Notes: generated by a model from the sequence alone, not told the origin. A stretch of 56,981 nucleotides of DNA from Eubacteriales bacterium (GCA_045533555.1 JAZSHZ010000209.1:1-56981); one strand, 5' to 3'; counted from the first letter of the stretch, positions 2,960 to 50,376 are shown. Numbers and translations: made by a program.

Positions 2960-3511
2960 TTATTTTACGAAATCGAGGATTCTTTGAATCAATACTGCGA
3001 CTTCGGCGCGTGTGGTGTTTGCCGTCGGGTAGATGAGAGCGTTTTTACCGTTTACAAGCTTTGCATTGACAAGTGCTGCTACTGAGTCTTTTGCATAGTC
3101 GGCTACCTTGTCATAATCGCTTGCCTGCGGGACGTCGAGGACGCCGTCCCCTACATTGAGTTTGTTCATTCCCACAAGTGCTCTGTAAACTATAACCATC
3201 ATATCCTGACGGGTGATATTGTTTCTCGGTGCGAATTTGTTCTCACCGATGCCGTTGACAAGACCTGTGTTGCGAGCTATCGCAAGCTCCTTTGCGAAGT
3301 AATCGGAAGATGAAACATCCGCGAAGTTTTCTTCACTCTCAGAAGCTAACTTAAATGCGCGGACAAGAAGTATTGCGAAGTCTGCGCGCGTGATGTTAGC
3401 TGCGGGTGAGAACGTATTCTCGCTTGTTCCCTTGATGATTCCTTCATCTGCAAGAGCATTGATAGCGTCTGCCGCCCAGGCATGATTTCCGAGGTCGATG
3501 AAGCGGACGTT
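2960..3511 (-). repeat. Dispersed SLH-anchor cassette, copy A (3' end of giant A)
   Basis: Encodes the three SLH repeats. It aligns without gaps to the 3' ends of the other three giants. For example, 3350-3511 versus 33874-34035 shows 14 mismatches in 162 nt by my manual count. Confidence 0.85.
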
Positions 3512-6500
3512 TGAATCAACATCCGGCGTTGTCGGTGTTGTCGGAGTTGTTGTTCCCGGTGTCTGCGGGACATCGTCCTTGTCATCTGCACCCGGAGTTG
3601 CCGGGATCGTCGGTTTGTCTGTCGGTGTGGACGGTGCGCTCGGTGGTCCTGCTCCGCCGCCACCGCCGCCGGTGGTTGAACCGTAAACCGTAACTATGAA
3701 GTGAATTGTGGATTCACGTCCGTGAGAGTCTGTTGCAGTCACTGCAAAATGGTTATTTCCGACCTGACTTGATGTTGGCTTCCATACAATCACACCTGTC
3801 GTCTCATCAAGAGTTGCACCACGAGGTATCTTCTCTCCACTGTATGTGACCGTTACGTCCTCAAGCTCGCTTGATGCATTGAGCTTTACAGTTATTGCGC
3901 TTCCCGCGCTTGTTGAAAGACCGTTCGGAACTGTATCAAATACAGGTGCATTATCATCACTTACCGAAAGCGGAATTATCGCTTCCTGACCTGCCGCTAT
4001 TGTATAGACATAGCCAAGTTCAGGCTGATACATATCGACATACTTTCTTATAAGAGTTGTTCTTCCGAGATTGAGAAGGATATTGTCGCCACTTCTCTCT
4101 GCCGATACAATCTTATACGCGCCGTCACGCATTCCCTCTTCGTTGTCGATAATAACAACGCGATTTGCGAGATCTGAAAGCTCTGCATCTGTCAGAGGCT
4201 CTTCTGTTGAAAGCTCAATAACATTTGAAGAAGCAAGCTCCTTCGTGAAATCTATAACTGTTCCAACAATCGCAGGCTTCTCGCCCGTTGCCTCTCCGAT
4301 GATATCACCGTCGAGAACATATTTATATGTATTCACGCCGTTTTCAACAGTATAAACTCCCACAAAACCACGGAAAGCAATTTCTGTATCGCCATCTGTT
4401 ACTGTATAAGTAACGTTATTATTTGTTGCATAGAAGACATAGTCAACTCTTCCGTCAGCAAGCTCTACTCTTACTGCACGGGCAGCATCGTTCTTCTTTT
4501 CCTTGCCGTCCGTTGCTGTCATTGCAAGCTCATCCGCCGACTTTAAGATACGATTTCCCTTATACGGTTCAAGGACCGTTGTGAATACAGTATCAAGCTC
4601 TTCGTTTTTGTTCTCATTTTCAATGAGGACATATTTGAGCTTGTCGATGTTTTTATTTGCAGCAACTCTCGGTGCATAACCATCGGTTATTGCTACATTA
4701 ACATCTGCACCTTCTGCCACGTTTGTTCCGTTGAGCATAGTCATGCGGAGATGGATATTCTTCGAATCCTTGACTGTCTTATTGAAGTCAGTGATTGCAA
4801 AGTCAATCTCAAACTTGTCTTCGGGATTTTCATCACGGTCAACATTTTCAAGCCAGGTAAATCCTATCGGATATTCGGTCTCATAATCCCATGAATTTGC
4901 GGTTTTGGGATCCTGTCCGTATTTTGTATCCTTGCCTGCGTATGTTCCGACATAGTTGCCTGCTTCATCTGCCTGCTTTACTGTTTCTATCCCTTCTGTT
5001 TCAGAGATTTCGTTGCTCTGTGCATGGAAACTGTAGATATGGCTGTTTCCTCCAAGGACTCTGAACAGATCAACATAATATGAATTTTCATCATCCACAT
5101 TGATCATTACAACACTTCTGCGATACGCCTCAGCTTCATCATAGACATAGCTTGTGTCAACATCTATTACCTGAACCTTATCTGCATCATCATAGTGCTT
5201 TACTTTACCGCGGATTTCAGAATTCTCCTCCTGCTTTTCACCGTTGACAACAACCGTGTTGTGTGAAAGAGTATTTCTTACCCACTGAATTCTGTTCGGG
5301 TCATTTCCCGTCTGCTCCGGATAACCGAGATCGGGAAGTATATTGAGGCCGAATGCCGTCATACCAATATTGAGGCTGTCAAGATGAGCGTGGCTGACAC
5401 CATTTGAGCCAAAATACATCCAGACATTTCTTGTTGTTTCACTGCTCGTTGCACTCGTCACATTATCCTCAAATCGGTGACCGTCACGGAGAATGGAGTA
5501 GCCAAATCCCGTCTGAATATCCGAGTCAAGTTCAATCTCGCCGTATTCATCAATAATTGCCTGAATCTCGTTTGCAAGGCTCTCAGGATTCTTTGTATAC
5601 ATATCATACTTGAGGTCTTCAACAGAATTTCCGTTAAGCATATAGAGATACTGTGCGAAAACGGGATCCTTAGTCTGTGTGTAAGCCGTCTTCATATGAC
5701 CTGCATTAGCCCAGTGAGAAATATCTGCGGTGTTTCCGCCGTCTCCTATCTGCGGAGAATAGCTGTTTGCAGCACGGAGCGGCATAAGTGCGAGGAACAT
5801 CTGCTGATATTTCGGATTTTCAGAGAGGTTTTCTTTTTTGTACTTATCATATCCGTTCAAAACATTGTTGACAAGGCTTACACCGCTGAGCCAGAGAAGT
5901 CCGTAGTCAGAAGCTTCGTTGCTATGACCGTCGGCACATATTTTCTCAATGAGAACTTCGTTTATTCCTCCGCCTACGACAGGAACATCTGTTGTCCAGC
6001 CGGGGGCAAAGAGATAATCAAGCCATTCTCCTGTTTCCGGGAAGGAATCAAGAATTACCGCCGCCATAGCCACATTTCGCTGTGACATACCGAAGTTACC
6101 GTGAATCTTTCTGTTGTATACTTCATCAAGGACTCCGCGTATAAAGTTATCTTCGACATTCTGGCGAATCTGCGCTGCTGTCTGCTTTGAATATCTGCTT
6201 GTATTGTTCTTTGCTATATAATCGATAACCTGAGAATCCTCATACATATCATATACCATATCATATGCAGGAACCTCGTTTGTGAGAATTGAGCATTCCC
6301 AGATGCAGCCGAGACGCTTGCCCTGGTTCGAACCGCCATCGGAGTTCCAGACATCATTTCCAAATGCCTTGATATCGTAGTCACGATAGAAATCCGCAAC
6401 TCGGTCAAGGAGGATTGCTGCTACACGTCCGTATTTCTTATCGCCGGTAAAGTAATATGCATAAGCACAGTTTGTGATTGCATTTGTAAGAACACCGCCG

Positions 6501-9500
6501 TTGTCTCCCGCCTTTGTCTGGAATACGCCATAATGCATAAATTCCGCGATATAGAGGTGTCTTTCCACAACGGTTCCGGACAGATATGCCTTGCCGTTTT
6601 CATCATACGGGACATATCCGTAGCCGTCATCAACTCCCCAGGTAGCTGTTGTCTCACCCGGACGGAGCCCCTGACCGCAGTTGATTGTGTCAACGTTTTC
6701 AAGGTTGGAATATAGCTTATTTACAAGATATCCGCCCTCTGCACCGTAGCCGTAATACTCCTTCCATTCCGCTGTTCCTTTAGTTGTCGGAGCAACGCAG
6801 TCACATTCAAGCTCTGCATCACCGTGGTGAATGAGGCTGTGGTGAGCATCAAGGGCATCCTGATATATAAATTCGCCGTATTCATTAAGACCGAGCTTAT
6901 AGAAGCTTTCGAAATCGTTGGACGGGAAATATCTGTCACATTCGGGGCACTGAATCTTCCACGGTCTGGTTATTGAATTATGTACCCACGGATAGTTACC
7001 ATACTTCTCCTGGAGATTCTCTCCACAGTAGCGGCAAGTGTACATATTCGGGTCTTTTTCTGCACCTACGGAGAAGCTTCTCGGAACCTCCTGAGATGCA
7101 ATGAGCGAATAAATCTCATCGAGCTTGTCAACATACTTATCGGCATTTTTTATGTATGTCTCGGCAGAGCTCTTTGCCCAATCATATTTTTTGATATTCT
7201 CTCTTGCAATTTCCTGCTTTTCAGCTGTCATATAGCTTGCTTCAGTCTTTGCCGTAACAACAGGAAGCTCAATGACCTTTGTGCGAATACGTCCGTCAAC
7301 CTTGACTGTTACCTCAAATCGGGCAGTTCCGTCTGCAACAGGCTCAATATAGTTTGCCCATTCACCGTTTTCATCCGGATACTGCTCATATGCTATTTTT
7401 GCAAATTCCGGAGTGAGTGCTGCAGCTGTTACCTCTGCATCCGTAAGATCAATATCGTTGCCGAGATTTGTTTTTGCGGAAACATAAAGCGGATATCTGT
7501 CTGTTGCATCGTCTGTAAGGCGTATTCTCGGGCTTCCGCCGCTTGTCGCCGTTATATCCGTCATTCCCTCGGGAAGAACCTCGACCTCGAAGCTCGTGCT
7601 CTTTGTTTCTCCGTTAAAGGTCGCAGTTGCTGTGATAGTCGTCTTTCCTACAGCGAGAGTTGTTATTGCGTTGCCGGATACGGTTGCGACGCTTTCATCG
7701 GAAGAAGAATATGTTATCGGTGCGTTTTCTTCACTGATAACTCTGCCGCTTTGAAGCTTTACTTCACCTTCAAGAAGCGCAATATCTCCAAGGAACACTT
7801 CATCTGCAACGGTCTTTGCAGTGACCGAAGCAATTGGGTCATTCACTACTTTTATCTTGACCGTTTCGGTTGTTTCCGTACCGCCAACGGTTACGGAAAG
7901 CGAAATCTCAGCCTCGCCTTCAGCCTTTCCGGTAAGCGTGAAGGGAAGCTTTCCGGTTTTGCCCATAGTGTAGGCCGCAAATCCCGAAACTCCAAGAACA
8001 TCGGAGGTCATCGAGCTTACTGATGCTGAATTTGCAGTATCTGCGCTTCCGTCGTTGTTTATACCGAAGTGAAGAGCCGAGCCGTCTGTCATGGCAGCAT
8101 AAACTGCACCCTGCACCGTTTCACCGACTGCTATCTCTTCGGGAAGCTCATATGCAATCTTTTCATAAACCGTTCCCGATTCTGCAACCGGGTCAAAGCT
8201 TATTGTTCCTACAACAAGAATTGCACCTGCGGAATAATGCTTTTCACGGGCTCTGAAGGATATCTTGTGTTCACCCTTCTCGAGATGCAATGTGTTAAGA
8301 GACTGCTCACCGTTATCGAACATAGCCGTAACCGACGGGTCATAGCAGTTGTAGTCACCTGCATACATATCATCAACGAATACAGAGAACTTTCCTCCCA
8401 AATTCCATACACCGCCATGAACCTTTAAATTGAAATCGTGTTCATAGGGAATGTCAACAAGAATCGTGATTGCATTGTTTGTGATTTTCGGAGTTGCCGG
8501 CCACATACCGCCGCGCAACCACATATATGCCGCCTTAAAGCCTGTGTTTGAGCAAGCGCCGAGACGCCACATTGTTGTGTCTGATTCTTCGCGCACCAGC
8601 GTATACCCCGGTGTTTTTGTCGGAGCAGGGCGATTACCCGAGCCGTCAGCACCATTATATTCACTCTGCGAGAAATCTACCGAAATAGTCGGGAAGGTTT
8701 CATAAACATTGAGTGTAAGCTTTCCTGATATTTTTGCACCGTCTTCGTTTTCAGCCTCTGCTGTTATGACGGTCATACCTGCCGCAATGGTTGCAACTTC
8801 GCCTGTTGCCTTATCAACCGTTGCTGCAGCAATGTTTGAGCTCTTATATGATACTGTATAACCGCTCATATCAGCAGCTATTCCGTCATTCATCATACCC
8901 TCAACGGTAATCTGCGCGGTATCTCCGGGAAGAAGAACGGATTTATCTGCCGAAAGTGTGATGCTTTCAAGCACAGGAGCAGCTTCAATTTCAATATCAA
9001 TACCTCCGATGACCTGCTTGCCTTCTGAAATTGCAGTCACCGTTATCTTTGCAGTACCCTTAGATACGCCTGTCACAACACCCGTTGTCTTATCAACGGT
9101 TGCGATGCTTTCATCGTAGCTTGCGAACGAAATTTCGGTTTCCTCTGTCCACTCGCTTTCGAGATTGCTTATAAGCTCATAAGAAACCTGCGCAGTTCTC
9201 GTTGCAGGAATGGTTTCTTTATCAACGAAAACCTTGACGGTCTGAAGCTCCGGAACCGGATATATCTTAATCGGAACCGTTTCTGTGTACGGTTCATTTC
9301 CGTCGGTGTTGACGGTAATTTTAATGTTTGTATCTCCGACTGTCTTCGCGTTTACCGTGAATGCAATATCGTTCTCGCTTTCAGGCTGAGCATACTTCAA
9401 ATCCGAAACGGTTGCGATGTTTTCATCTTCGATAATAACCGAAACGGTATTCTTCACATCTTCCGAAGCATTATCAGAAAGCCCGAAGCCGCGGTATGAA

Positions 9501-11723: not shown

Positions 11724-14306
11724 TTATTTGCTATATATCACATTACCGTTTGAAAGGATTGCATAACCGATTGCTTCACCGCTTACGTCATCGATTACGG
11801 AGAAGGTGTCTCCCTCTGTTTTCATCGAGATCTTGTGAGTTGCATTGTCGATATCCGTTCCGAAAAGGATTCCCTTTTCGACGACATCGGAAATTCCGAT
11901 AAATTCCGCAACTGCGGCGGTTTCTCCACCGACAAGTCTCGTTCCGAGAATAATCTTTCTCACTGTCTTTGCAACCGGAGTATAGTCGTTATAAACGGCC
12001 GTTACGGTCGTGTCCTTCCAAGCCTTGAAGCTGTAAGAAAGATCAAAGCTTACTATTTCTCCGTCGCGCTCCCAGTAGTTGAAGAGCTGCATTCCCGTGT
12101 TATTCTTGCGAGCGGGTGCAGTCACGGTTACCGTTTCACCATATGCCGGTGTCGCATTATCTGCAGTTCCGCCGATTACCGTTATCTCAAAGCTTTCGGA
12201 GGGCTCGTCCGAATATTCCGCAACGAAGCGCATAAGCTTTCCGCTTGCCCTGACTTCATCATCTGCGGTATAAGTCTCGCCGTCCGCATCAAGTGTCCAG
12301 CCCGTTGCAGTATCAAAGCCTGCAAGGCTCGGAAGCGCAGGAAGCATTATCGCATCGTTTTCATTATATTGACTGCGGGAGATTTCATCTCCGTTCGCAT
12401 TATAGAAGATGACATCCGTCTCTGCCGAGTTGTTATCCGCATACACTGCAGTAAGCCACATAGGACCTTTTTCAGCTTTGACGGAAAGCTTTGCATCATA
12501 AGAAGCGATCTTCTTGAATTCGCCCATACCCTGCGCCCAATAGAGGAAGGTATATCCCTCTTTTTCGGGAGCGGTATATGTAATATCGGAGCCTGCTGCG
12601 ACATCATCTGTGTCAAGAACACTGTTATCTGCTCCGCAGAGGATTTTTACATTTGATGTTGTGCTTGCCGGAGCTTTTTCCGTTGCATTGCCGGGGTTGA
12701 CGTTTGTAATGGAATCGTATTCAGCTTGTACTTTTTCTTGTTCTGTGTCTTCAACAAGCTTCAGCTCTACTCCCGAAAGAAGGAATAATTGACGGAACAC
12801 ACTGTTTCTTGATACAAACCAACACTTTTCGTTCTCAAGCGAGGACATATCAAATACAAGAATATATTCTCCCGGTTCAGTAGCCGTTACAGTTCCGAGC
12901 ATCGTCTTTGCAGGAGTTTCGGCATCTGTTGCAAGTACATTTGAATCATATATTCCAAGATATTCATAATTTTTGTAAACCTCGGCAAACGCAGCCAAAT
13001 TATTTACGGTTCCCGTTGACTTATATGTGAAATTGAAGCCATTTGCCTTTCCGAAATATGTCTTCACCTTTACACCTTCGTCAAATACACTTGCATCTGC
13101 ACCATTCGCCTGTGTTGAAGTCTTTTTCAAGCTCATTATCGTGTCTGAATCAGCTGTAAATCTATTTACTACGGAAAGCTCATATTCCCCTGCATACGGT
13201 ATGTTCAATTTTAGCATATATTGAGGTCTGGTTGCAATCGTTGTTCCCTCATAGTTTTTTGCCGTCCACTCTGTTGCAGACGTTCCTTTTCCGATATTGA
13301 ATTGTGTATGAACACCGATATCTTCAAGAACAAGTGCATTGTCATAACCGCTTCTTCCGTAAAGCTCAAATCCATCCGTCTTGTTTGCATCGAGTGCAGG
13401 ATTCTTGTCAAGCTTGCTCTTCCAACTTATATACTGATGTTCCAAGTTATCAATTACGCCGGAAGAAGTTGCGTTCGTACTTTCCTGCAACGAACCGAAA
13501 TCCGTTATTGCCGTTGAAGAAAGTGCATTAGTTGATATATCATAATTATAATATGCCTCTTTTGCATCGGGAGTTTCAGAAAGCATAAATGACTTCAAAT
13601 CCAAAGAACCAACATATCTCGAATCCAAATATTCCGTTGTCCAACCATCAGACGCGCCATTTGGTAAAATGACGAGATAATAATTTCCCGGTTGTACATC
13701 ATATCTTCGGAAAGATGCAGTTTTTATCTCAACCGACTCTCCGTATGCATCAATCATGCCAAGGCGCTGTTCCGGATGAGCAACGACATGATTAAACACA
13801 GCCTGACGTCTTGTTCTTGATGTTGTGCTCGTCCAACCTGCTGGATTTGTTATTGAAGACTTTTCTACTAAATAAACATCGTTTCTCATACCCGAGGACG
13901 ATGTTTTATATGTGATACTGGGAACAACATCGCCGGCAACATCAACTACCAGTTCAAGTATTAAGCCCGAACTTAATTTAGTGTTGTCCACGGCATCGAA
14001 CGCCTCAGGTCTTGCATTTTGGTCAGACGTCGAAACAAGGTGACGTAATCTTATATATTCATATCCAAGATCTCTTTTGTTTGCGCTCAAATCATTCACA
14101 TATGCCCACTTATCACCGACAACGGTTGCATCAAGCGAACAATCAGCTGTCGTCATGGAGATAAATGTCGTTTTGTCTGCTTCCAGTCCATGAGATGCGG
14201 CAGTGAAAATATATTCGTTATAGTCGCCATCCCCTGCCGCGAAGCTCATCGGCATTATTCCGACAATCATTGCACACGCAAGAATAATTGATAAAATTCT
14301 CTTCAT
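11724..14306 (-). CDS. Secreted partner protein A' (860 aa): two CBM-like modules paralogous to the N-terminus of giant A, InlB-B-repeat-like units, conserved C-terminal tail, no SLH
   Basis: Signal peptide MKRILSIILACAMIVGIMPMSFAA and SD GGGAGG (14315-14320). Collinear motif matches to giant A include EYIFTAASHG, IDNLEHQYISWKSKL, YMLKLNIPYAGEYELS and QLFLLSGVELKLVED. GYTFLYWAQG and LFNYWERDG repeats are present. Confidence 0.9.
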   Translation of the reverse strand: MKRILSIILACAMIVGIMPMSFAAGDGDYNEYIFTAASHGLEADKTTFISMTTADCSLDATVVGDKWAYVNDLSANKRDLGYEYIRLRHLVSTSDQNARPEAFDAVDNTKLSSGLILELVVDVAGDVVPSITYKTSSSGMRNDVYLVEKSSITNPAGWTSTTSRTRRQAVFNHVVAHPEQRLGMIDAYGESVEIKTASFRRYDVQPGNYYLVILPNGASDGWTTEYLDSRYVGSLDLKSFMLSETPDAKEAYYNYDISTNALSSTAITDFGSLQESTNATSSGVIDNLEHQYISWKSKLDKNPALDANKTDGFELYGRSGYDNALVLEDIGVHTQFNIGKGTSATEWTAKNYEGTTIATRPQYMLKLNIPYAGEYELSVVNRFTADSDTIMSLKKTSTQANGADASVFDEGVKVKTYFGKANGFNFTYKSTGTVNNLAAFAEVYKNYEYLGIYDSNVLATDAETPAKTMLGTVTATEPGEYILVFDMSSLENEKCWFVSRNSVFRQLFLLSGVELKLVEDTEQEKVQAEYDSITNVNPGNATEKAPASTTSNVKILCGADNSVLDTDDVAAGSDITYTAPEKEGYTFLYWAQGMGEFKKIASYDAKLSVKAEKGPMWLTAVYADNNSAETDVIFYNANGDEISRSQYNENDAIMLPALPSLAGFDTATGWTLDADGETYTADDEVRASGKLMRFVAEYSDEPSESFEITVIGGTADNATPAYGETVTVTAPARKNNTGMQLFNYWERDGEIVSFDLSYSFKAWKDTTVTAVYNDYTPVAKTVRKIILGTRLVGGETAAVAEFIGISDVVEKGILFGTDIDNATHKISMKTEGDTFSVIDDVSGEAIGYAILSNGNVIYSK

Positions 14307-15230: not shown

Positions 15231-15276
15231 ATGCTCACCACATCGCTTAATATAATGGTAACAATTATACACGATA

Positions 15277-15341
15277 ATTATAGCACAGCAAAAAACACAT
15301 ATCTATATATAATCTTATACAAAATATGCAGAATCTTACAC
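15277..15341 (-). promoter_or_regulatory. Promoter of the cassette-A AraC gene with conserved 23-bp block and phased half-site
   Basis: Extended -10 TGCTATAAT (15277-15285, minus strand). The 23-bp block ATTTTGTATAAGATTATATATAG (15303-15325) lies 20 nt upstream of the hexamer. A second half-site GTGTAAGATTC (15331-15341) lies 21 bp from TATAAGATTAT. Confidence 0.5.
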
Positions 15342-17389: not shown

Positions 17390-17436
17390 TTTTGTTTCTC
17401 CCTTCGCGCATGACTGCATATCATAATTCGGCATAC

Positions 17437-41250: not shown

Positions 41251-44200
41251 GCCATAAACTCTTATATTGAAATGCAATGTGCTTTCTCTTCCCGCACTGT
41301 CCTTCGCTGTTACGGAGAAGTGGTTTTCACCTACCTGCGAGCTTGTCGGCTTCCATGTGATTTTTCCGTCTTCCGAAAGAGATGCTCCTCTGGGAATTGA
41401 GTTTGCCAGATATATAACTTCTCCGTCATCCTTTGCTTTTGCTCTGACATTCACGGATAATGCGCTTCCCGCATTTACGCTGAGTCCCGTAAGCTCTTCA
41501 AACACGGGCGCATCATCAAATTCATAAGACATCGGAATATACGCGCTCTGCCCTTTGCTGATATTATAAACATATCCTTTTGTGAAATCATCCTCATCGG
41601 CATAGCTTCGAATAGTCGGCACAAGCCCGATATTGAGCTTCACCTTTCCATTGGAAAGCTTTTCCGCACTTTCGATAACATACGTTCCGTTCTCCGCTCC
41701 GTCATTCCTGATATTGACTATCTTACCCGCAAGGGAATCAGCATCATCGATATCTGCAGAAAGAATGATGTAGTTTTCCATCATATGCTCATGGCTGAAA
41801 TCTGAAACCGTTCCGCTATATGCACTCATCAGATTTTCTTTATCGCCGATCACATCTCCGTCACTTATATATGAATAGATGTTCTCTCCGACAGCATTTA
41901 CGGAGTATACTCCGACAAAGCCCCGGAAATTGAACACATCTCCCACATTATAGAGCACTGTGTTATCCGTTGAATATACAATATAGTCGCGTCTGCCATC
42001 CCTGAACCTGACACAGATTGCGCGGGCTTCGCCTTCCTGCGGCGCAGGGGAAATCGCAACAGGCGTCACCGATTCTATGCGGCGGTTTTCCTTATATGGC
42101 TCAAGCACCGTTGTGAAAAGGCTCTTCAGGTCTTTTCCTTCGCGTTTTACAAGAGCATACTTGATTCCTCGCGGAAGACCTGCATTAACGCTCTTATTCG
42201 GCACATAACCGTCTGCTATCGCAACCTCCGAAACCGCGAAATCATTTACCTGCGTCATTCTGAGATGAATCTTGTCGTTGTCCCTTATCGCCTTGCGGTA
42301 GTCTGTTATTTTGAAATCAACAGAGAAGCTTCCCTCGGGATTTGCGGCTCTGTTGACATTCTTAAGCCAGGTATAGCCACGCGGATAGCGAAGCACATCC
42401 GCATCCGAATATGCGGTATCGGGATCCTGAACAAACCCCGGAACATCAATTCCCGCATAGCTTCCCTTATATTCTCCGTTTTCAGCCTGCGCAACGAGGT
42501 TCAGACCTTCCGTTTCATAAATCTCTTCCGATTGTGCGTGGAAGCTGTAGACATGGGTATTTCCGCCCTGAACATTGAAGAAATCAACGCCATAGCTTAT
42601 ATCTCCGGGTGCTTCTACCATAACGAGTGTTCTGCGATATTCATCCGCACCGGGATATGCTTCTTCGCTTCTCATATCAACGACCTTCACCTGATTTCCG
42701 TCATCAAAATGGAGCGGAGTCGCCGATTTGAGCGTTCTCGTCTGCTGCTTTTCATCTATCGTTACGGTGTTATGGGATAATGTTGTATTGATCCACTGAT
42801 CGCGGTTCGGATCACTTCCCGTTGCTTCGGGATAACCGAGATCGGGGCTTAAGTTGAGGCCGAACGCCTCAACGCCGATATTCATCGAATCGAGCTGATG
42901 ATGCGATGCATTTCCCCAACCCGAATATATCCAGAAGCTTCGGAGAGTATTATCCGAGCCATCGGTGCTGATGCTTTCGCGGCGCTCGCCTTCTCTCAAT
43001 ACAGCAAAGCCATAACCCGAAAGGAGCTCGCTTCCGCTCTTTGAAACATTATCGGAAAGGGCGAGGATTTCTTCCTTTATGCTTTCGGGATTCTTTGTGA
43101 AAATATCATAATGGATCCCCGAAACATCTCCGTCATGTCTCATATATATCTGATTTGCAAGTCTCTTTGCAACATCGGTATCTTTTAAATACTTAAAGCT
43201 CTTTATAAGATTTTCCGCGGAATCGACAAATCCGATTGTCGCCGTACCCTGAGAGTCGCCTATCTGCACGGTATGGCTGTCGCTCAATATAAGCGATGTG
43301 AAATTTGTCGAAATCTGCGCAAATCTCGGAGTTTTTGATATGTCATACTTGCTCTTATTTACGCCGTTGTATCTCGAAAGAGCTTCAACGGTCTCAAAAA
43401 GGTCATCAGGTGCTATATAGTTATACTGAGGCGAGGATTCAAATCCGAAACCGTCGCGATCAAGCTCGCCGACAAAGTAGTTGCCGAGATTTCCGCCGGT
43501 TACCTCAAAAGCTTTATAGCCTACCCAGCCGCCGCTTTTGAAGGTGAAGTCCAGAATTTCTTCGCTTTCAGGCTCATTACCGAGAGCAATCGCGGTTTTT
43601 ACAAGTGCTTCCTGAGCCATACCGAAATTGCCCCATACATTGGCTTTCTTTACGGAGCGGTAGTTTTCAAGAAGAAGGCCTTCCTGCCAGTTTTTCCAAA
43701 TATCGTAGGCGCTTTCCTTTTTGTTTTCAAGGTTATATTTCTCCGCCTTTTCCGAAAGGAAGCTGATAACCGTTTTGTCTTCGAGAATCGGGAAGAGCAT
43801 ATCCGCCGCTTCCGCAAAGTTTGTTGCAAATTCACAGTCCTGAATACGTCCGACAAACTTACCTTCACCTGTGCCGCCGTGGGTATAGAAGAAGGTTTTG
43901 AAATACTGCCACATATCCATATCCGGATAAACATCGGCAATTCTGTCGAGAATGATTGCGCAGGCTCTTCCATACTTTGCTTCACCGGTATAGTAATAAG
44001 CATAAGAAAGGTTCTTTACCGCGGGACGGACATACTGGAACCACGCATGCCAATTATAGACAGCTATATGTGTATGGCGCTCGACAACGCCGTTGGAATA
44101 TTTATAAGGTTCTCCGTTTTCCTTTTTCGGAACATATCCGAAGCCGTCATCAACGCCCCATTTTTCAACGGTTTCGCCCGCTCGGAGCCCTTTGCCGCAA

Positions 44201-47200
44201 TTTATTGTGTTTGAAAGCTCCGGATAGAGAATGTTGACGAGGACATCCGCTTCGGGACCGAATTCCGCAATATTTGCGTTGTTCTTCTCGTGGGCACGGT
44301 TAACATTGAATATACCGTGTTCATCAAGACCGAGTTCATAGAACTTCCCAAAGTCATTTGACGGGAAAAGACGCTTACAGTCGGGGCACTGGATCTTCCA
44401 CGGACGCATAATGAAGTTTATATCATATGCATATGCGCCGTCTGCACCGTATTTTGTCGCAATATCAACTCCGCAGTAGCGGCAATAATAGTATTCGGGG
44501 TCATCCTGCGAACCATTCTGCCTGCCTCTCGGGACGCCTTCACCGACAATGTGGTCATAAATATATTCATAATGCTCCACATATCTGTCGCCTGCCGCAA
44601 CGATTGAGTTCTTCTGATCTTTTGCCCAGTTATATTTTTCAACATTTTCAAAGAGATTCTTCTGCATCTCTTTTGTGAACAAAGTGGGCTCAGTCTTCTT
44701 CGCGCCTTCAAGCGCTGTAATTTCTATTTCGTTTGAGGAAATATCCGTTCCGCGGAAATCTGCCTTTGCGGAAACTCTGACAATACCGATACCGGTCGCG
44801 CATACATAGCCTTCTTCATCCACATATGCAATGCCCTCGGGTTCCGTTACAACCGTATAATCAATATCACTTACCGGAACTTCGAGGCGTTTTCCGCTGC
44901 TCATATCCGCGTGAAGAGTAAGCTTCTTTCTACCGCGCACATATATGGTCTCCTCCGCAGAAAGCGTTGCCGCCATAACCTCACTTGCATCGGTTACGGT
45001 TATCTTTGCGGTTACATCCATTGCAACGCCGCCGTAAATCACACGCGCCTTGATCAGGGAGCTGCCTTCCTCAACACCGCGGATTTTTCCGTCTTCCGAT
45101 ATTTCCGCAATATGGGAATTTGAAGAGGAATATTTAATTTTAAGCTCATTCTCATCGATCTTCGAGCCATCGAGCATATATGCCGAAATTCCCGCGGATG
45201 TCTCTTCTCCGACCTTGATGTCATAATTCCCGATATGAAGCTCTGCGCGCTTCATGCCGTCAACACCGTCTAATGTGAAGGACTTGAAATCCATATAACC
45301 GCCGCGGAGAGACTTTATGACAAGGATATATTCTCCTGCGGCCTTTATATCAACGTCTCCTATTTCCACGGTGCCGAGAGTAAGCTCTTTTGCGTTTTCA
45401 TCCTGGCAGTCAAATGTGCAGAGATAATTATCCTGAGTGAGCGCCTCGGATATATTCTCCGTGTCCTTCGGAACAAGATAAACCTCTGCCGCGATTCTGC
45501 CCGAATAATATTTGCAATATTCAAAGGTTGCGAGGTATCTTCCCGAAGCCGGGATATTTACCGTGAAGCCAACCCATTTGTCTTTGCTTGTTCCCACGCG
45601 GGTGCGACCGTCCGCGCCGCTTCCGGTATACATCCATACCACCGTATTTCCGCTTTCCTCGTAAATACCCGATATGTTACTGTCATACCACTCCCAGTTG
45701 CCGGGAGAGCTTGTCTTTGATGTATACTGATATGTTATTCCGCGTATGTCATTCGCGTTCGGAGCGGATTCTCCCTTCCAGTATACAGGCTTCCAGTTAT
45801 CGTTTTTTATGCTGAAATCATACTTTGCGTATACGCCGCTGTATTGCATAAACTCATCGCCCGTTATTGTGAGCTTCACCGTATCGCTTACTGTTATGCC
45901 GCCTACCGTCACACTTGCGGTAACCTCGACATCGCCCGTTGAGTATGTTCTGAATTTTCCTGTCTCCGCATCTATTCTGAGAATGCTTTCATCGGATGAG
46001 ACATATTTCACCTGAAGTTCTTCTCCGCCAAGAGTCTTACTGTCGCTCATCGTCACGGTGACGGAAGGCTTTAAGCTTTTCGAAACCGAAAGCCCGAGTG
46101 CTGTCGGAACAGTATCTTTACCGCCGTTGAGAATAATCGTTCTCGGAAGGAGCAGGTATCTTGACATACTGTTATACTCTCCAAAGCCCTTGAACACGAG
46201 GAGATATTCACCTGCTGACGGCGCATCAAAGGAGCCGCTCGCAGTATAGGGCGCGCTTTCGCTATACTCGCTTCTCTCTCCGTTGCAGTTCATCACCGCA
46301 ACCGGAGTTGCCGTTGCAATAGCTCCCTCCACATCCGCTGTATCGGCAGGAAGGATAAAAACCTTTCCGCTTGTTCCGCTGGAGTGCTTATTGTAGCCGA
46401 GAGTTACGTTATAATAACCCTTTTTCGGAATCATGATTTTATAGGAAACATACTCCGCCGCGCGCATATGCATCGCAACCGAGTTTCTCTCCCAGCCGAG
46501 CGCACCCGATATTCCGCCGGGGTTATCAAGCTCAATTCTGTTTCCGCTGTTTTCATATGTTATGAGTGCCGCATTTGCAAGAGACACATATTCGCTCTGC
46601 GTCAAAGGATAGCGGACGGTTATTCCGGACATTTCGACATCCGATTTTATAACCGCTATTTCATTACCGCAAAGCACATAGTCGCCGCTTTTAGTGAGCA
46701 CATCCGCTTTGCCCTCACCCACGGGAACTATTTTGTTTCCATCAATTCGCACGACGGATGTGTCGGAGCTTTCAAAGGTCAGAGCATTCACTTCCGCGCT
46801 TGCGCCCTTTGAACCGTCGCTCATATAAAGAGTATCCACGGAAATTTCCGCAGTTTCACCCGTTGCAACATTGATTATTTCTTTTGAAAGGACGGAATTC
46901 GCCCATATGGGAGCTTTGCCGTCTCCGCCGGAAAGAGTGAGGTCGCCGAGAGTGACGAGATATCTTCCCATTGAGTTCTTATCTCCGGTTCCCTTCCATA
47001 CAACAATGTATTCTCCGGGTGCTTCCGCTTCCCATTCCGCGCTTTGCGACGGCGCAGTGCCGCCTGTAAGCTCAGCCCCCGCAGTTCCCGTTTCACCGTA
47101 GAAATCAATTGTCATAACGGGAGTTGCATTTATAAGCGCCGACGGAATATCCGTCACGTTTGCGCTTAAGATATACATATCATTTTTTGTTCCGGCAGTT

Positions 47201-47553
47201 TTCTTCGCATACTGCTGTGTTACTGTATATTTTCCTGCCTTTGGCACACGGATCTTCAGCGCCGCATATTCGCCTTCTTTCAAATGCGCCGAAAGCGCAT
47301 ATGTTCCCCAGCTTATGCCGCCGCTTACCGATGATGTTGACGAATGCCATTCTATTCTGCCCTTGCTGTCTGCAGAGGCGTATTTTATGTTTGTCGGCGG
47401 AGTTGCATCGGTATCATATGCGAGCGCACTTGAAATCGGATAATGTATTTCTATACCCGATGCTGCCGCTTCTGCGGAAACCGATGAAGAGATCTGCGGA
47501 AGCAACGCAACCGTCATACAAATGGCAAGAACAACCGATAAAATTCTTTTCAT
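40519..47553 (-). CDS. Giant SLH-anchored surface protein D (2,344 aa): same architecture as C
   Basis: Uninterrupted 7.0-kb ORF. SD GGAGGAAAAAG (47561-47565 core). Signal peptide MKRILSVVLAICMTVALLPQISSSVSA. Core motifs YYYTGEAKYGRACAIILDRIADVY and GNASHHQLDSMNIGVEAFGLNLSPDLGYPE...LSHNTVTIDE. SLH tail FIDLGNHAWAADAINTLADGGIIKG. Confidence 0.95.
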   Translation of the reverse strand: MKRILSVVLAICMTVALLPQISSSVSAEAAASGIEIHYPISSALAYDTDATPPTNIKYASADSKGRIEWHSSTSSVSGGISWGTYALSAHLKEGEYAALKIRVPKAGKYTVTQQYAKKTAGTKNDMYILSANVTDIPSALINATPVMTIDFYGETGTAGAELTGGTAPSQSAEWEAEAPGEYIVVWKGTGDKNSMGRYLVTLGDLTLSGGDGKAPIWANSVLSKEIINVATGETAEISVDTLYMSDGSKGASAEVNALTFESSDTSVVRIDGNKIVPVGEGKADVLTKSGDYVLCGNEIAVIKSDVEMSGITVRYPLTQSEYVSLANAALITYENSGNRIELDNPGGISGALGWERNSVAMHMRAAEYVSYKIMIPKKGYYNVTLGYNKHSSGTSGKVFILPADTADVEGAIATATPVAVMNCNGERSEYSESAPYTASGSFDAPSAGEYLLVFKGFGEYNSMSRYLLLPRTIILNGGKDTVPTALGLSVSKSLKPSVTVTMSDSKTLGGEELQVKYVSSDESILRIDAETGKFRTYSTGDVEVTASVTVGGITVSDTVKLTITGDEFMQYSGVYAKYDFSIKNDNWKPVYWKGESAPNANDIRGITYQYTSKTSSPGNWEWYDSNISGIYEESGNTVVWMYTGSGADGRTRVGTSKDKWVGFTVNIPASGRYLATFEYCKYYSGRIAAEVYLVPKDTENISEALTQDNYLCTFDCQDENAKELTLGTVEIGDVDIKAAGEYILVIKSLRGGYMDFKSFTLDGVDGMKRAELHIGNYDIKVGEETSAGISAYMLDGSKIDENELKIKYSSSNSHIAEISEDGKIRGVEEGSSLIKARVIYGGVAMDVTAKITVTDASEVMAATLSAEETIYVRGRKKLTLHADMSSGKRLEVPVSDIDYTVVTEPEGIAYVDEEGYVCATGIGIVRVSAKADFRGTDISSNEIEITALEGAKKTEPTLFTKEMQKNLFENVEKYNWAKDQKNSIVAAGDRYVEHYEYIYDHIVGEGVPRGRQNGSQDDPEYYYCRYCGVDIATKYGADGAYAYDINFIMRPWKIQCPDCKRLFPSNDFGKFYELGLDEHGIFNVNRAHEKNNANIAEFGPEADVLVNILYPELSNTINCGKGLRAGETVEKWGVDDGFGYVPKKENGEPYKYSNGVVERHTHIAVYNWHAWFQYVRPAVKNLSYAYYYTGEAKYGRACAIILDRIADVYPDMDMWQYFKTFFYTHGGTGEGKFVGRIQDCEFATNFAEAADMLFPILEDKTVISFLSEKAEKYNLENKKESAYDIWKNWQEGLLLENYRSVKKANVWGNFGMAQEALVKTAIALGNEPESEEILDFTFKSGGWVGYKAFEVTGGNLGNYFVGELDRDGFGFESSPQYNYIAPDDLFETVEALSRYNGVNKSKYDISKTPRFAQISTNFTSLILSDSHTVQIGDSQGTATIGFVDSAENLIKSFKYLKDTDVAKRLANQIYMRHDGDVSGIHYDIFTKNPESIKEEILALSDNVSKSGSELLSGYGFAVLREGERRESISTDGSDNTLRSFWIYSGWGNASHHQLDSMNIGVEAFGLNLSPDLGYPEATGSDPNRDQWINTTLSHNTVTIDEKQQTRTLKSATPLHFDDGNQVKVVDMRSEEAYPGADEYRRTLVMVEAPGDISYGVDFFNVQGGNTHVYSFHAQSEEIYETEGLNLVAQAENGEYKGSYAGIDVPGFVQDPDTAYSDADVLRYPRGYTWLKNVNRAANPEGSFSVDFKITDYRKAIRDNDKIHLRMTQVNDFAVSEVAIADGYVPNKSVNAGLPRGIKYALVKREGKDLKSLFTTVLEPYKENRRIESVTPVAISPAPQEGEARAICVRFRDGRRDYIVYSTDNTVLYNVGDVFNFRGFVGVYSVNAVGENIYSYISDGDVIGDKENLMSAYSGTVSDFSHEHMMENYIILSADIDDADSLAGKIVNIRNDGAENGTYVIESAEKLSNGKVKLNIGLVPTIRSYADEDDFTKGYVYNISKGQSAYIPMSYEFDDAPVFEELTGLSVNAGSALSVNVRAKAKDDGEVIYLANSIPRGASLSEDGKITWKPTSSQVGENHFSVTAKDSAGRESTLHFNIRVYGSTAGGGGGGASVPSTPGTTAPTIPATKPEDKDNTSSSTDNVGDKTPSVGDADSSLGEGAGNTRFIDLGNHAWAADAINTLADGGIIKGTSENTFSPAANITRADFAILLVRAFKLASEREENFADVSSSDYFAKELAVARNTGLVNGIGENKFAPRNNITRQDMMVIVYRALAGMEKINVGDRVLYVPQASDYDKVADYAKDAVAALINAKLISGKNGLIDPTANTTRAEVAVLLHRILEYIR
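42505..44700 (-). other. Heparinase II/III-like core of giant D, with Cys4 insert at 44377-44484
   Basis: Runs from TEPTLFTKEMQKNLFENVEKYNWAKDQ to FFNVQGGNTHVYSFHAQSEEIYE. The H.H motif is altered to HHQ (42895-42903). Confidence 0.7.
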
Positions 47554-47616: not shown

Positions 47617-50376
47617 TTACTTGCTGTAAATTACCCTGGGCGCCCCGTCAGTATCCTTGAACATTACATAGCCGCGGACTGAAGTCTGCGCATATTTTGT
47701 ATCTGTGCTCTTTTTCGCGGTAAACTGACCGTGAGCCTTGATATTCTTTACCTTTGCCTTATAATAGCAGGCGTTTACTGTGTTGTGGCTGTCATCGCCG
47801 AAGATAATACCTGCATCCACTATTTCATACCCTGCCGCATCATACTCAAGCATATATGCATCCCCACTTATATTGAGCACTGCTATCGGAAGCTTTTCGG
47901 ATGCATCTGCTTCAGATGATTCTATCTCGGTTGCACTCCATACATAATAGGTGTATGTATCGCCGTATCCGACAAGCTCATCATCGCGGTACCATGCCTT
48001 TGCGCCGGAAACCGTCTTTGTTATGGCGTCGCCATATTTTGTTCCGCTCTGAGCTTCCCCGTTTACCTTAACGCCCGAAACAGCTTTTCCTTCATCCTCA
48101 TAAAGAGCAACTGCGCGGAGAACCGCATTTATTACGGTATCATCAGCAATGCTCCAGTTCTTGAATTCATAACCCATAAGGTTTGCAGTCGGTGCTTCGA
48201 TTCCATCAAAACGGGTTCCCTTCTCCGCAGAAACAAATCCGAGGAAATCGCGGTTGCCATTGAAGAATTCAACACCTGTTCTGTCATTTTCTTCGCTTAT
48301 ATTATCAAATACCGCAATGATTGATGTGTTTGTATATGCCGTGAAGGTATATTCCGCACTGTCGCTTACAACATTGCCGGCACTGTTCTTCCAGTATGCA
48401 AACTTATACCCCTCATCCGCAATTGCTTCCGCCTTAACTTTCGTTCCTGCAGCCGCACTTGCCACCGTATTTACGGCAACCTTATCGGCATCAACACTTC
48501 CGCCGGATGTTCCCGCAATATAGATTCTTACCGTATCCGATACCGCCTCACCCGGAGCATTATCGGGAACAGTCACGGTTTTTGTGTATGCTTTGCTTTC
48601 ACCGTCAACAAGAGCAGTTACCGTAATCTTCGCAACACCGGGCTTATTTGCGGTGAGCTTATATGTTGTGGTTGTCGGGTCGATTTCCTGCGTATAGTTC
48701 TGATATACACTGGGTTCTATGCATACAACATCACTTACACTTACAACCGCGGAGTTTGAAGACTCGACCTTGATTATATCATCTTCAGTGGGAACAGCAC
48801 CAGCATCGGTATATCCGAAATAACGATATGTTCCGTCTGCCATCCTGACCTTTGCGGTAAGGTCTGCCGATGCATCGACCTCGATAGTATCGGGGATTGA
48901 TGTTTCAACTGCGGAAATCGCAGGCTTCTCTGCGGGAGAAAGAGTGAGTGTTATCGGTGAAAAGAGACTATATCCGCCGCTATAGTGTCTGTGTCTTGTT
49001 CTGAAGGAAATCTCAACATCTCCTGCCGGAATATACACGGTGTTGAGTGTATTTTCCGTTCCGAGCTTCTGCCCGCTTGCTTTTGCGTCATAGAAATTAT
49101 AGTCACCTGCGTATTCTCCGTTTATATAAAGTGCATAACGGGAATGTGCATTCCACATAACACCAAGAAGCTTTACCTGATAATAGCCGGGATAGCTGAA
49201 GCTTTTCCTGATTGTTAAGCTTGTATCTGCAACAGATTTCGCCGGCCATTCAAGCCAGCCTGTATGAAGCTTTGCGATGGCATATCCCGAAACAGTTACA
49301 TAGCCGCTGAGCATTGTTCCGTCACCGGACTTTGTCTTTTCCGGAACCATACTGAATGCGTTGTCGGTTATAGTCCATGTATCGCACTTTGTTCCGTTTG
49401 TACCGGTAATCGCACCGTTTGCAAAATTAATTACAACAGGTGCTTTTCCCTTGACCTTTATATCCGCTTCACCTATTACGCGGTCTCCCGATTTTGCATA
49501 TAACTTGACATCACCGGAAGAAATCCCCTTTACTGTTGCACCGGAAACCGTTGCGATTTCTTCATCGGAGCTCTCAAAGGTGATTGCCGCAATGTCATCG
49601 CTTGTTCCGAGTGTTGCATCGGACATATAAAGCTTTGAAACAGAAACAGTTGCAATGTCAATTCCGTTTCCTTCAATTTCATTCTTGCTGACATTTACTT
49701 CAGCAAGCATCGGAGTCTTAAGGCTTCCGTCTCCGCTTACAAAGCGAAGATCATGGACTCTTATGTTTTTTGCGTTTGCCGCACGGAATACAACAACATA
49801 CTCACCTGCAGAAAGCGTTTTTGAACCGAGAGTCGTTTTCTGCTGACCGTTCTGCTTGCCGTTTGTGCAATTTGCAGAGCCAATAAGACCGGTGCCGTTT
49901 GTTATGCTGTTTGTAATATCATCTTTTGTTGCCGTTCCGTCAAGGATATAAAGCTGGCATTCCGTGTCGAAGGAGGTGTCACTGTCATATCCGAGGATAA
50001 CGTTATATGTTCCGGCAACCGGGACTTTTACCTTTATCGAGAACCATGTTTTGCCACTTGCGAAGTATGCTCTGAAACCGTTATTTCTTACATTGCTTGT
50101 TGAATAACAATGATTTATGGAAAAACCGGTTTCTATTTCATGAAAAACCCAGAATCCATTGGACTTTTCATAGGTATCAACAAAATTTTTACTTCCTCCA
50201 TTAAAGAAGGTCGTTTCCCCCGTTGTATACGGGACATCCTCACTGTAGTTGTCTATAAAATCATATACAATCGTATATCCTGCATCTGCCGCAAACGCAG
50301 TTGTGGGAAGGAGAGCTGTTGCCATGCAGAGAATAAGAGCTATGCTGAGAATCTGCGTGAATAAATTCTTTTTCAT
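47617..50376 (-). CDS. Secreted partner protein C' (~919 aa): CBM-like module paralogous to module 2 of giant C, Big_2, a second CBM-like module of the giant-A type, InlB-B-repeat-like units, conserved tail, no SLH
   Basis: Start moved to MKKNLFTQILSIALILCMATALLPTTAFAA (ATG 50374-50376), which has GGAGGA 8 nt upstream; the ORF is open to 50391. Motifs YDFIDNYSEDVPYTTGETTF, WFSIKVKVPVAGTYNVILGY, LYINGEYAGDYNFYD...DVEISFRTRHRHY, GYKFAYWKNS and GYEFKNWS. Only 24 nt separate it from the GH127 stop. Confidence 0.9.
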   Translation of the reverse strand: MKKNLFTQILSIALILCMATALLPTTAFAADAGYTIVYDFIDNYSEDVPYTTGETTFFNGGSKNFVDTYEKSNGFWVFHEIETGFSINHCYSTSNVRNNGFRAYFASGKTWFSIKVKVPVAGTYNVILGYDSDTSFDTECQLYILDGTATKDDITNSITNGTGLIGSANCTNGKQNGQQKTTLGSKTLSAGEYVVVFRAANAKNIRVHDLRFVSGDGSLKTPMLAEVNVSKNEIEGNGIDIATVSVSKLYMSDATLGTSDDIAAITFESSDEEIATVSGATVKGISSGDVKLYAKSGDRVIGEADIKVKGKAPVVINFANGAITGTNGTKCDTWTITDNAFSMVPEKTKSGDGTMLSGYVTVSGYAIAKLHTGWLEWPAKSVADTSLTIRKSFSYPGYYQVKLLGVMWNAHSRYALYINGEYAGDYNFYDAKASGQKLGTENTLNTVYIPAGDVEISFRTRHRHYSGGYSLFSPITLTLSPAEKPAISAVETSIPDTIEVDASADLTAKVRMADGTYRYFGYTDAGAVPTEDDIIKVESSNSAVVSVSDVVCIEPSVYQNYTQEIDPTTTTYKLTANKPGVAKITVTALVDGESKAYTKTVTVPDNAPGEAVSDTVRIYIAGTSGGSVDADKVAVNTVASAAAGTKVKAEAIADEGYKFAYWKNSAGNVVSDSAEYTFTAYTNTSIIAVFDNISEENDRTGVEFFNGNRDFLGFVSAEKGTRFDGIEAPTANLMGYEFKNWSIADDTVINAVLRAVALYEDEGKAVSGVKVNGEAQSGTKYGDAITKTVSGAKAWYRDDELVGYGDTYTYYVWSATEIESSEADASEKLPIAVLNISGDAYMLEYDAAGYEIVDAGIIFGDDSHNTVNACYYKAKVKNIKAHGQFTAKKSTDTKYAQTSVRGYVMFKDTDGAPRVIYSK

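Follow-up and report, generated by a model that had tools for sequence, protein, structure and literature searches.

Giant S-layer-anchored proteins of an Eubacteriales bacterium with a putative lyase unit of an uncharacterized heparinase II/III-like family

Multimodular glycanases of Paenibacillus, Thermoanaerobacterium, and Clostridium, such as xylanases, combine carbohydrate-binding modules (CBMs) with three S-layer homology (SLH) repeats. The SLH triplet attaches non-covalently to pyruvylated secondary cell-wall polymer (CsaB). The enzymes of polysaccharide lyase (PL) family 17 are periplasmic or cytoplasmic and are not known as SLH-anchored giants. Family PL40 is reported to be marine and to belong to about 93% to Bacteroidota (PMC12915356). 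The locus described below lies in a stretch of 56,981 nucleotides (nt) from an Eubacteriales bacterium (GCA_045533555.1, JAZSHZ010000209.1:1-56981), which was analyzed at full length and is termed the window. It encodes four giant proteins, A to D, each of which has a conserved lyase-like unit and ends in three SLH repeats. With a probability of about 0.68, these giants are SLH-held extracellular lyases whose catalytic unit belongs to an uncharacterized heparinase II/III-like family.

Architecture of the giants and fold of the conserved unit

Open reading frames (ORFs) were taken from a six-frame list of the window, domains were called with Pfam, and export signals were judged by eye on the N-termini. 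An earlier note on this DNA, made from the sequence alone, had described four uninterrupted minus-strand giant ORFs, and all four are in the list (Table 1). The extent it gave for giant B (18334-25431) corresponds to a real ORF, for which a longer start at 25449 is also possible; the in-frame Met at 25431 is the seventh codon of this longer frame. The giants have a common order of signal peptide, variable beta-sandwich/Big_2 modules (about 1,440 amino acids (aa) of them in giant A), conserved unit, He_PIG domain, G/P/T linker, and SLH triplet. The Sec signal peptides, Big_2 and He_PIG domains, and three SLH repeats ascribed to every giant are borne out by Pfam and by the N-termini, which in the giants and in the small partner proteins described below are K/R-rich, then hydrophobic, then of the A-x-A type. 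Each giant thus has the two features expected of a surface protein of this kind, namely a Sec-like signal peptide and three tandem SLH repeats.

The limits of the conserved unit are set by stand-alone homologues of about 1,010 aa. The earlier note had separated a core of about 750 aa from a beta-rich region of about 450 aa; these form one unit of about 1,050-1,100 aa, because both occur together as a stand-alone protein. In all four giants, the unit matches Hepar_II_III_C (PF07940) with 26.0-38.6 bits at a gathering cut-off of 24. An alignment of the four giant cores with 41 homologues (45 sequences) served as input for an AlphaFold2 (AF2) model of the unit, which has a predicted local distance difference test score (pLDDT) of 91.5 and a predicted template modeling score (pTM) of 0.90. 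In this model, the first 230 aa or so form an N-terminal extension, in which a helical hairpin is joined by small hairpins that surround two CxxC knuckles. A helical toroid (about 235-571) comes next, then a beta-sandwich that starts at 579, and the additional beta domains at the C-terminus make up about 200 aa.

A Foldseek search of the PDB with the model (significance limit E <= 1e-3) gives 45 significant matches, all of which consist of an (alpha/alpha)6-toroid and a beta-sandwich. These are 44 polysaccharide-lyase chains and one dermatan-sulfate epimerase (6hzn, E 8e-13). The top match is Alg17c of PL17 (E 2e-25, TMt 0.70), with further PL17 enzymes likewise strong, and the second family is PL40 with Uly1040 (E 5e-24); weaker matches come from PL39, PL15, PL21, PL12, PL35, PL33, and PL8. 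At the sequence level, a profile of the family finds AlgL17 of PL17 (E 9e-13) and Uly1040 (E 1e-11) among the PDB sequences, with the GHGHxDxL...PD.G...HNT/SHNTV region aligned, and a toroid-only profile weakly finds heparinase III (4mmi, E 0.018), with DG.G.E.S..Y and GDS aligned. A phmmer search of the PDB sequences with the whole of giant A returns SLH and Ig matches only, so that the family profile and the fold search were needed to recognize the core. Among the toroid-domain Pfam models, none of Alginate_lyase, DUF4962, and Hepar_II_III_N matches the giants at E <= 0.01.

The heparinase II/III or alginate-lyase-type fold that the earlier note had recognized is thus found both by hidden Markov model (HMM), with PF07940 above its gathering score, and by structure, in the AF2 model and its Foldseek matches, as well as in the catalytic columns described in the next section. 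The core motifs it quoted agree with the family consensus (AYxYTGDxKYGRAGAILLDRIADFYP and GHGHxDxLN...PDLGYP...SHNTV). Its Cys4 insert (CxxC...CxxC) is likewise real; this putative zinc ribbon forms short beta hairpins in the model and is kept in 42 of the 45 aligned sequences and in about 219 of 256 domains (about 86%), and it is lost as a set in a Paenibacillus-type subgroup (e.g., Paenibacillus P0090). Neither the Cys4 insert nor the extra C-terminal beta domains were found in the characterized relatives.

The best-supported placement of the core is in an uncharacterized family, sister to PL17 and PL40, inside the heparinase II/III-like lyase superfamily. Membership in PL17 itself was rejected, as identity is 14-16%, the profile match is local, and the NCBIfam model olalg_lyase reaches 17.8 bits at a cut-off of 1,400. 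In the comparison with PL40, the C-terminal 270 aa match at E 1e-11, identity in the structural alignment is 15%, the toroid half has no sequence-level match, and by these sequences the family looks like a sister of PL40 rather than a member. The giant gellan lyase of Bacillus sp. GL1 was considered as an analogue; gellan lyase is assigned to PL33, whose fold match falls behind those of PL17 and PL40, so the family is not filed there. In line with the earlier note, which knew of no characterized counterpart, no characterized homologue is present among the PDB sequences, and no description of the family was found in the literature, for which search coverage was incomplete and absence is unproven. 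The database names of members are generic: "S-layer homology domain-containing protein", "heparinase II/III family protein", "Ig-like domain-containing protein", and "FIMAH domain-containing protein".

Putative catalytic residues

In Uly1040, N245 neutralizes the carboxylate, E301 positions the substrate, Y305 is the catalytic acid, D358 activates the base, H485 is the catalytic base, and H487 is a Mn2+ ligand whose replacement (H487A) abolished activity; a metal-assisted His tetrad is described in PL39 (all PMC12915356). The equivalent family residues, given here in A-core numbering, are N387 (for N245), E447 (E301), Y451 (Y305), D505 (D358), H622 (H485), and H624 (H487). Their spacing is nearly the same, at +56, +60, +113, +240, and +242 from N245 in Uly1040 and at +60, +64, +118, +235, and +237 from N387 in the family. 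D/E642 and H665 fit the remaining metal ligands by spacing and by comparison with PL17.

Conservation was counted in 257 domain instances drawn from about 250 retrieved homologues. Y451, H622, and N666 are present in 257/257, D505 and H665 in 256/257, N387 in 253/257, E447 in 252/257, and H624 in 244/257. At the alignment level, the residues by which the superfamily is recognized, N387, Y451, and H622, are therefore (near-)invariant and are matched to motifs of PL17, PL40, and PL12. The putative set is complete in giants A, B, and C (Table 1, in full-protein numbering). In giant D, Gln occupies the H624 position, the second His of His-x-His, as it does in 4 of the 257 family domains, and giant D may consequently have an altered metal dependence or a reduced or otherwise altered activity. 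The earlier note had left the giants as either depolymerases or binding platforms. Because the catalytic set is essentially invariant across the 257 domains, the conservation pattern argues for an active enzyme over a passive binding platform.

Distribution, partner proteins, and cassettes

The family was surveyed exhaustively by HMM among 1.84 billion cluster representatives (50%-identity clusters). With a limit of E <= 1e-30 the search finds 1,202 proteins, and with E <= 1e-3 it finds 3,858. The distribution check called for by the earlier note thus yields about 1,200 clusters at the stricter limit, with no characterized homologue found among PDB sequences or in the incompletely covered literature. 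Most of the best 150 matches are 2,000-4,100 aa long. P0123 (4,066 aa), one of them, is matched by the core profile in two stretches (2,577 bits) and may contain two lyase-like units in a single chain. When one genome per species was scanned, 499 relatives were confirmed, and the neighborhood counts below refer to the best 77 of these. The 77 loci come from a handful of gut metagenome-assembled genomes (MAGs), led by RGIG3057 from goat rectum (14 loci), SIG480 (13), RGIG3186 (10), SGB_1084 (7), and RGIG1800 (6), and two Paenibacillus species are also included. The family is greatly expanded in a few uncultured gut Oscillospiraceae. The scale and four-fold paralogy that the earlier note held to be exceptional are therefore not so: giants of 2,000-4,100 aa are the norm, as many as 14 of the best 77 loci come from a single MAG, and the locus is a typical one for its lineage, in which four copies per window are ordinary.

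Genes for cytoplasmic stand-alone members (about 1,010 aa) are found within operons for ABC sugar transporters that also include AraC-type regulators, and one of them adjoins GH78, GH38, and BNR genes (GH, glycoside hydrolase). Near a family member in another locus (L004, 22233-25544) lies a protein of 3,613 aa in which Big_2, He_PIG, and SLH domains are found and no Hepar_II_III_C match is recorded. The scaffold of N-terminal modules, He_PIG, and SLH may, by this domain content, carry other catalytic cores in the lineage.

The four giants differ most at their N-termini. By local BLAST, the C-terminal 1,600 aa or so are kept among them at 42-53% identity and the N-terminal parts are not; giant D is collinear with giant C at 42.5% identity over the full length. 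Pairwise aa identity is 18-31% in the N-terminal modules, 38-52% in the conserved unit, 45-58% in He_PIG and linker, and 81-90% in the SLH triplet. The paralogues are old, and their divergence, strongest in the N-terminal modules, suggests different glycan targets. The SLH regions are found by Pfam in 2-3 stretches per giant at E 4e-25 to 6e-29, and that of giant A matches the SLH domain of Sap from B. anthracis (PDB 3pyw, E 3e-10). Over the final 300 nt, which encode the third repeat (2960-3259, 18334-18633, 33484-33783, and 40519-40818), DNA identity is 78-89%. Because SLH identity is this high in DNA and protein in comparison with the cores, the anchor would seem to have been homogenized by gene conversion or to be under very strong constraint while the N-terminal parts diversify. 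No csaB-like gene lies within the window.

An iterative HMM search of the window proteins shows that giants C and D each have three copies of a module of about 220 aa (beta-sandwich plus Big_2) and one further Big_2 domain, with partial copies in A, B, and the partners sA and sD. A modeled copy (pLDDT 82) consists of a beta-sandwich and then two Big_2 domains, and its fold matches are Big_2 arrays (LigA), S-layer Ig domains, MAM-Ig modules, and CBM-bearing enzymes, with no named CBM family matched. Of the "CBM-like" modules in the earlier note, the beta-sandwich fold with Big_2 therefore stands and a named CBM family does not, and on the model the label is plausible.

The three smaller paralogues of that note, here called partners sA, sB, and sD, share N-terminal modules with the neighboring giant (35-43% identity) and have no lyase core, He_PIG, SLH, or other recognizable anchor. 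Their C-terminal 300 aa or so contain InlB B-repeats and a conserved terminal domain; they are not reduced copies of the giants. The partner family adjoins a giant in 34-38 of the 77 loci, never on the opposite strand (0/38 pairings), and its distance to the giant downstream is below 300 nt in 21 loci (median 47 nt). The window shows spacings of 58 nt between sA and A, about 0-20 nt between sB and B, and 63 nt between sD and D; no separate partner accompanies giant C. When sA was used for a deep homologue search, it found itself and one other protein only, and a partner profile, built from an alignment of ORFs in the loci, gives spurious repeat-protein matches only in the PDB, with no structural relative found. 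The partner may capture substrate or dock onto the giant. The set of wall-anchored giants is not categorically new; what is new here is the small secreted InlB-repeat partner gene, found directly upstream of the giant at many loci.

Table 1. Coordinates of features in the window, with putative catalytic residues of the giants
Feature	Position (nt)	Strand	Length or residues	Remarks
Giant A	2960-11665	minus	2,901 aa	Big_2, Hepar_II_III_C, He_PIG, SLH (Pfam)
Lyase-like unit of A	3959-7255	minus	aa 1471-2569	Putative set N1857, E1917, Y1921, D1975, H2092, H2094, D2112, H2135
Cys4 insert of A	6938-7036	minus	C1544, C1547, C1573, C1576	CxxC...CxxC, putative zinc ribbon
Three SLH repeats of A	2987-3520	minus		Pfam SLH E 6e-29
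Giant B	18334-25449	minus	2,371 aa	Big_2, Hepar_II_III_C, He_PIG, SLH (Pfam)
Lyase-like unit of B	19351-22758	minus	aa 898-2033	Putative set N1284, E1344, Y1348, D1401, H1516, H1518, D1536, H1559
Giant C	33484-40497	minus	2,337 aa	Big_2, Hepar_II_III_C, He_PIG, SLH (Pfam)
Lyase-like unit of C	34498-37650	minus	aa 950-2000	Putative set N1307, E1367, Y1372, D1426, H1541, H1543, D1561, H1584
Giant D	40519-47553	minus	2,344 aa	Big_2, Hepar_II_III_C, He_PIG, SLH (Pfam)
Lyase-like unit of D	41521-44697	minus	aa 953-2011	Putative set N1309, E1372, Y1377, D1433, H1551, D1571, H1594; Q1553 at second His of His-x-His
Partner sA	11724-14306	minus	860 aa	N-terminus 35% identical to N-terminus of A
Partner sB	25452-27209	minus	585 aa	N-terminus 41% identical to N-terminus of B
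Partner sD	47617-50391	minus	924 aa	Modules common to C and D; InlB-repeat C-terminal domain
AraC regulator, cassette 1	14349-15272	minus		Pfam HTH_18, HTH_AraC, AraC_binding
"GH42-like" protein, cassette 1	15353-17434	minus		Sub-threshold Glyco_hydro_42M and GHL15; PDB 5xb7 E 0.018
GH20 beta-N-acetylhexosaminidase (GH20C type), cytoplasmic	27380-29152	plus		Pfam Glyco_hydro_20, Glyco_H_20C_C; PDB 2epk E 5e-96, 5a69 E 1e-93
AraC regulator, cassette 2	29174-30208	minus		Pfam
Secreted protein SLH495	31867-33354	plus	495 aa	N-terminal SLH repeats, no other recognizable domain
GH127 beta-L-arabinofuranosidase-family enzyme, cytoplasmic	50401-52299	minus		Pfam E 2e-96; PDB 4qjy E 2e-144
AraC regulator, cassette 3	52411-53202	minus		
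GFO/IDH/MocA oxidoreductase	178-1122	minus		Pfam; downstream of A, possible accessory gene

The three cassettes of AraC regulator and glycosidase are placed as the earlier note had them, and each is syntenic in another MAG; its "GH42-like" label derives from a sub-threshold Glyco_hydro_42M match. The nearest relative of the window is RGIG3057, whose A-core orthologue is 84% identical. Cassette 1 has an orthologue in L005 (A core 84%, A N-terminus 80%, sA 49%, AraC 52%, GH42-like 84%), cassette 2 in L019 (B core 56%, sB 40%, AraC 36%, PHP 73%, SLH495 40%), and cassette 3 in L057 (D core 57%, AraC 73%), where a 76% GH127 orthologue adjoins the D orthologue. Since each cassette has an orthologue elsewhere, the paralogues are older than these species, and each has retained accessory genes of its own. 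The GH42-like protein is a member of an uncharacterized Clostridia family with the NCBI name "beta-galactosidase trimerization domain-containing protein", and a related neighbor cluster carries GHL6, GH42M, and GLMA_2nd. The GH127 enzyme is close to a Geobacillus beta-L-arabinofuranosidase. By eye, none of the GH20, GH127, and GH42-like proteins has a signal peptide.

The earlier note had also seen a resemblance to a polysaccharide utilization locus (PUL). Carbohydrate-active enzymes (CAZymes) and regulators are indeed combined here, with three AraC genes and the GH20, GH127, and GH42-like genes in cassettes that are syntenic elsewhere. The resemblance is nevertheless partial. The window has no co-localized carbohydrate transporter (ABC substrate-binding protein (SBP) or permease, PTS, or MFS) and lacks genes that process unsaturated uronates. 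Nor do the partner glycosidases extend across the family, as GH127 is found in 1/77 loci, GH20 in 4/77, and GH42-like in 1/77.

All ORFs flanking the 77 loci were clustered, and 16 recurrent clusters were annotated; the survey covers these flanks. Recurrent neighbors are AraC (24 + 5 loci), SBP_bac_1 (17), a ceramidase-like protein (8), DegT aminotransferase (4), Amidohydro_2 (4), GH29 fucosidase (3), CE15 glucuronoyl esterase (3), and GH78 rhamnosidase (2). Capsule-type (PGA_cap) and D-aminopeptidase genes are also among the neighbors. The contexts of three SLH-bearing or cytoplasmic homologues have no single CAZyme partner common to all. The ceramidase-like, CE15, GH29, and GH78 neighbors are possible substrate clues. 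Overall, the setting is one of carbohydrate catabolism, with CE15 and GH78 hinting at glycans that contain glucuronic acid (GlcA) and rhamnose (Rha).

Other genes and signals accompany the cassettes. The GFO/IDH/MocA oxidoreductase may take part in downstream sugar processing; its type recurs beside family members (e.g., in L013, L014, L031, L033, and L084), the count being 12/77 loci, and two copies lie upstream of Paenibacillus P0090. The SLH495 gene adjoins PHP and C26-peptidase genes, and SLH495 and PHP are kept with cassette 2 in L019. A 62-nt repeat (71% identity) lies immediately upstream of the cassette 1 AraC gene (15277-15338) and of the GH42-like gene (17437-17498), each copy overlapping a promoter-like site; the repeat may serve cassette 1 as a shared operator. 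Strong terminator-like bidirectional hairpins just downstream of A (2920-2956, 17-bp stem) and B (18219-18262, 20-bp stem) mark cassette ends. In the 1.8-kb gap before giant A, the plus strand has broken frames (about 1290-2904) that include a start resembling a signal peptide (MKRRIMRAIIALTLVIAMSAGMFASA) and a "GYTFDGWY" fragment resembling an InlB repeat; a gene for a secreted protein may have decayed here. Nucleotide composition is even across the window, and Rfam has no match anywhere in it.

Alternative readings and comparison with known systems

If the giants are wall-held lyases, the variable N-terminal beta-sandwich/Ig modules would hold a uronate-containing polysaccharide, and the Asn in the toroid/sandwich cleft would neutralize its C6 carboxylate. 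The first His of the metal-supported His-x-His, activated via Asp, would then abstract the C5 proton, and Tyr would protonate the leaving glycosidic oxygen, yielding a 4,5-unsaturated product by beta-elimination. Giants A, B, and D would each share a transcript with their small secreted partner, in which part of the giant's N-terminal modules is copied. An AraC-type sensor of its own would serve each cassette, and a cytoplasmic exo-glycosidase would finish the imported fragments.

Several points weigh against this reading. Identity to any characterized lyase is just 14-16%, and biochemical data on any member were not found in the literature. The putative equivalence with PL40 and PL12 residues comes from profile alignments, spacing, and the one weak toroid alignment (E 0.018). 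Giant D is without the second His, at the position where H487A inactivated Uly1040 (PMC12915356). The residue pattern cannot separate a lyase from a C5-epimerase, which has the same chemistry up to the elimination step, and C5-epimerases (6hzn) use the same fold and residues. The 57 kb of the window contain no ABC transporter, and genes of the GH88/GH105 or Kdu type are found neither there nor among the 16 annotated neighbor clusters.

Among the alternatives, the one that survives best, itself rather unlikely, is that the giants are lyases of microbial polymers, such as capsules, exopolysaccharides (EPS), or teichuronic-acid-type polymers of neighbors or of the cell itself, and serve competition or wall remodeling and not fiber foraging. 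The strong expansion per genome with hypervariable N-terminal modules and the position of the enzymes on the wall would suit such a role, as would PGA_cap, DegT aminotransferase, GH20, and D-aminopeptidase neighbors and the absence of classical downstream genes for pectin or glycosaminoglycans (GAGs). However, partners of the plant-glycan type (GH127, CE15, GH78, and GH29) and SBPs for sugars are recurrent as well, and each cassette is headed by a sugar sensor of the AraC type.

Less probable still is a core that acts as a uronate C5-epimerase or other non-cleaving modifier and remodels a surface polymer. Human dermatan-sulfate epimerase 1, the single non-lyase among the fold matches, has its Tyr/His set in common with the lyase fold, and GH88/GH105 and Kdu genes are missing from the window and from the annotated recurrent neighbors. 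Nevertheless, all other fold matches are lyase chains, including the best (PL17 and PL40), the cytoplasmic members in sugar-uptake operons with glycosidases indicate a catabolic setting, and the cassettes contain no polysaccharide-synthesis genes. A chiefly non-catalytic role of the giants at the surface, as adhesins, platforms for glycan binding, or scaffolds associated with the S-layer, with the core as a mere binding module, is the least probable of all, since their very large size, tandem Ig-like/beta-sandwich modules, and SLH anchors, the likeness of the module model to Big_2 arrays of adhesins (LigA) and S-layer proteins, the missing motif His of giant D, and the reported high transcription of SLH-domain genes in an Oscillospiraceae group (PMC12871809) stand against catalytic and metal-ligand residues that are (near-)invariant in 257 domains otherwise about 35-50% identical, which is unexpected for pure binding, and against cytoplasmic stand-alone homologues that lack any anchoring or adhesive context.

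Should the lyase activity of the giants prove true, the core would probably found a new CAZy PL family of more than 1,000 sequence clusters, centered on uncultured ruminant and human gut Clostridia. It would also show a Gram-positive cell that displays many large paralogous lyases on one common wall anchor. For experiments, the stand-alone members (about 1,010 aa) are an easy starting point, and new specificities for acidic glycans of plant, host, or microbial origin are possible. A more far-reaching and doubtful proposal is that a new PL family with Cys4 ribbon, extra beta domains, and an obligate secreted InlB-repeat partner that copies the binding modules, grown to twelve or more wall-anchored giants in each genome, is the main acidic-glycan harvester of an uncultured gut Oscillospiraceae lineage. 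If so, it would be a Gram-positive alternative to Sus-type PULs and cellulosomes, with targets such as Rha/GlcA plant gums, lignin-linked glucuronoxylan, or EPS of microbes; lyases of the toroid and sandwich fold are not known for such glycans.

Compared with described lyases, the unit is closest to PL17 (Alg17c, PDB 4NEI/4OJZ; AlgL17, 9IRQ), with which it shares the toroid and beta-sandwich and the metal/His motifs GHGHxDxL, PD.G, and HNT. In contrast, the profile match covers about 125-150 of 1,041 family positions, PL17 enzymes have about 700 aa, and the family adds the 230-aa N-terminal extension with the Cys4 ribbon and about 200 aa of C-terminal beta domains. With Uly1040 of PL40 (PDB 9VTK; PMC12915356), it has in common the Asn, Glu-x3-Tyr, Asp, and His-x-His in the same order and at nearly the same spacing, and some family members show a faint match to the Pfam model Ulvan_lyaseC. 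A Cys4 ribbon, an SLH anchor, and a giant modular form are all features that PL40 lacks, however, and the family described here occurs in Clostridia and Paenibacillus. PL39 Dp0100, PL15 (Atu3025 and exoHep), PL21 heparinase II, PL12 heparinase III, PL35, and PL33 share the fold (E 1e-13 to 6e-18) and the Pfam domain Hepar_II_III_C, and are more distant than PL17 and PL40.

At the level of the locus, Gram-positive PULs likewise place a surface enzyme, an AraC regulator, and an intracellular exo-glycosidase side by side, in cassettes kept between species. They differ from the locus in that the window is without a transporter, although SBP genes flank members in 17/77 other loci, and in that enzymes for unsaturated uronates are found neither in the window nor among the annotated recurrent neighbors. 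The SLH-anchored glycanases of Firmicutes resemble the giants in their signal peptide, binding modules, catalytic module, and C-terminal SLH triplet. Compared to these glycanases, the giants are two to three times larger, carry a lyase-like catalytic module of an uncharacterized family, are paired with a dedicated secreted partner gene, and occur as many paralogues per genome.

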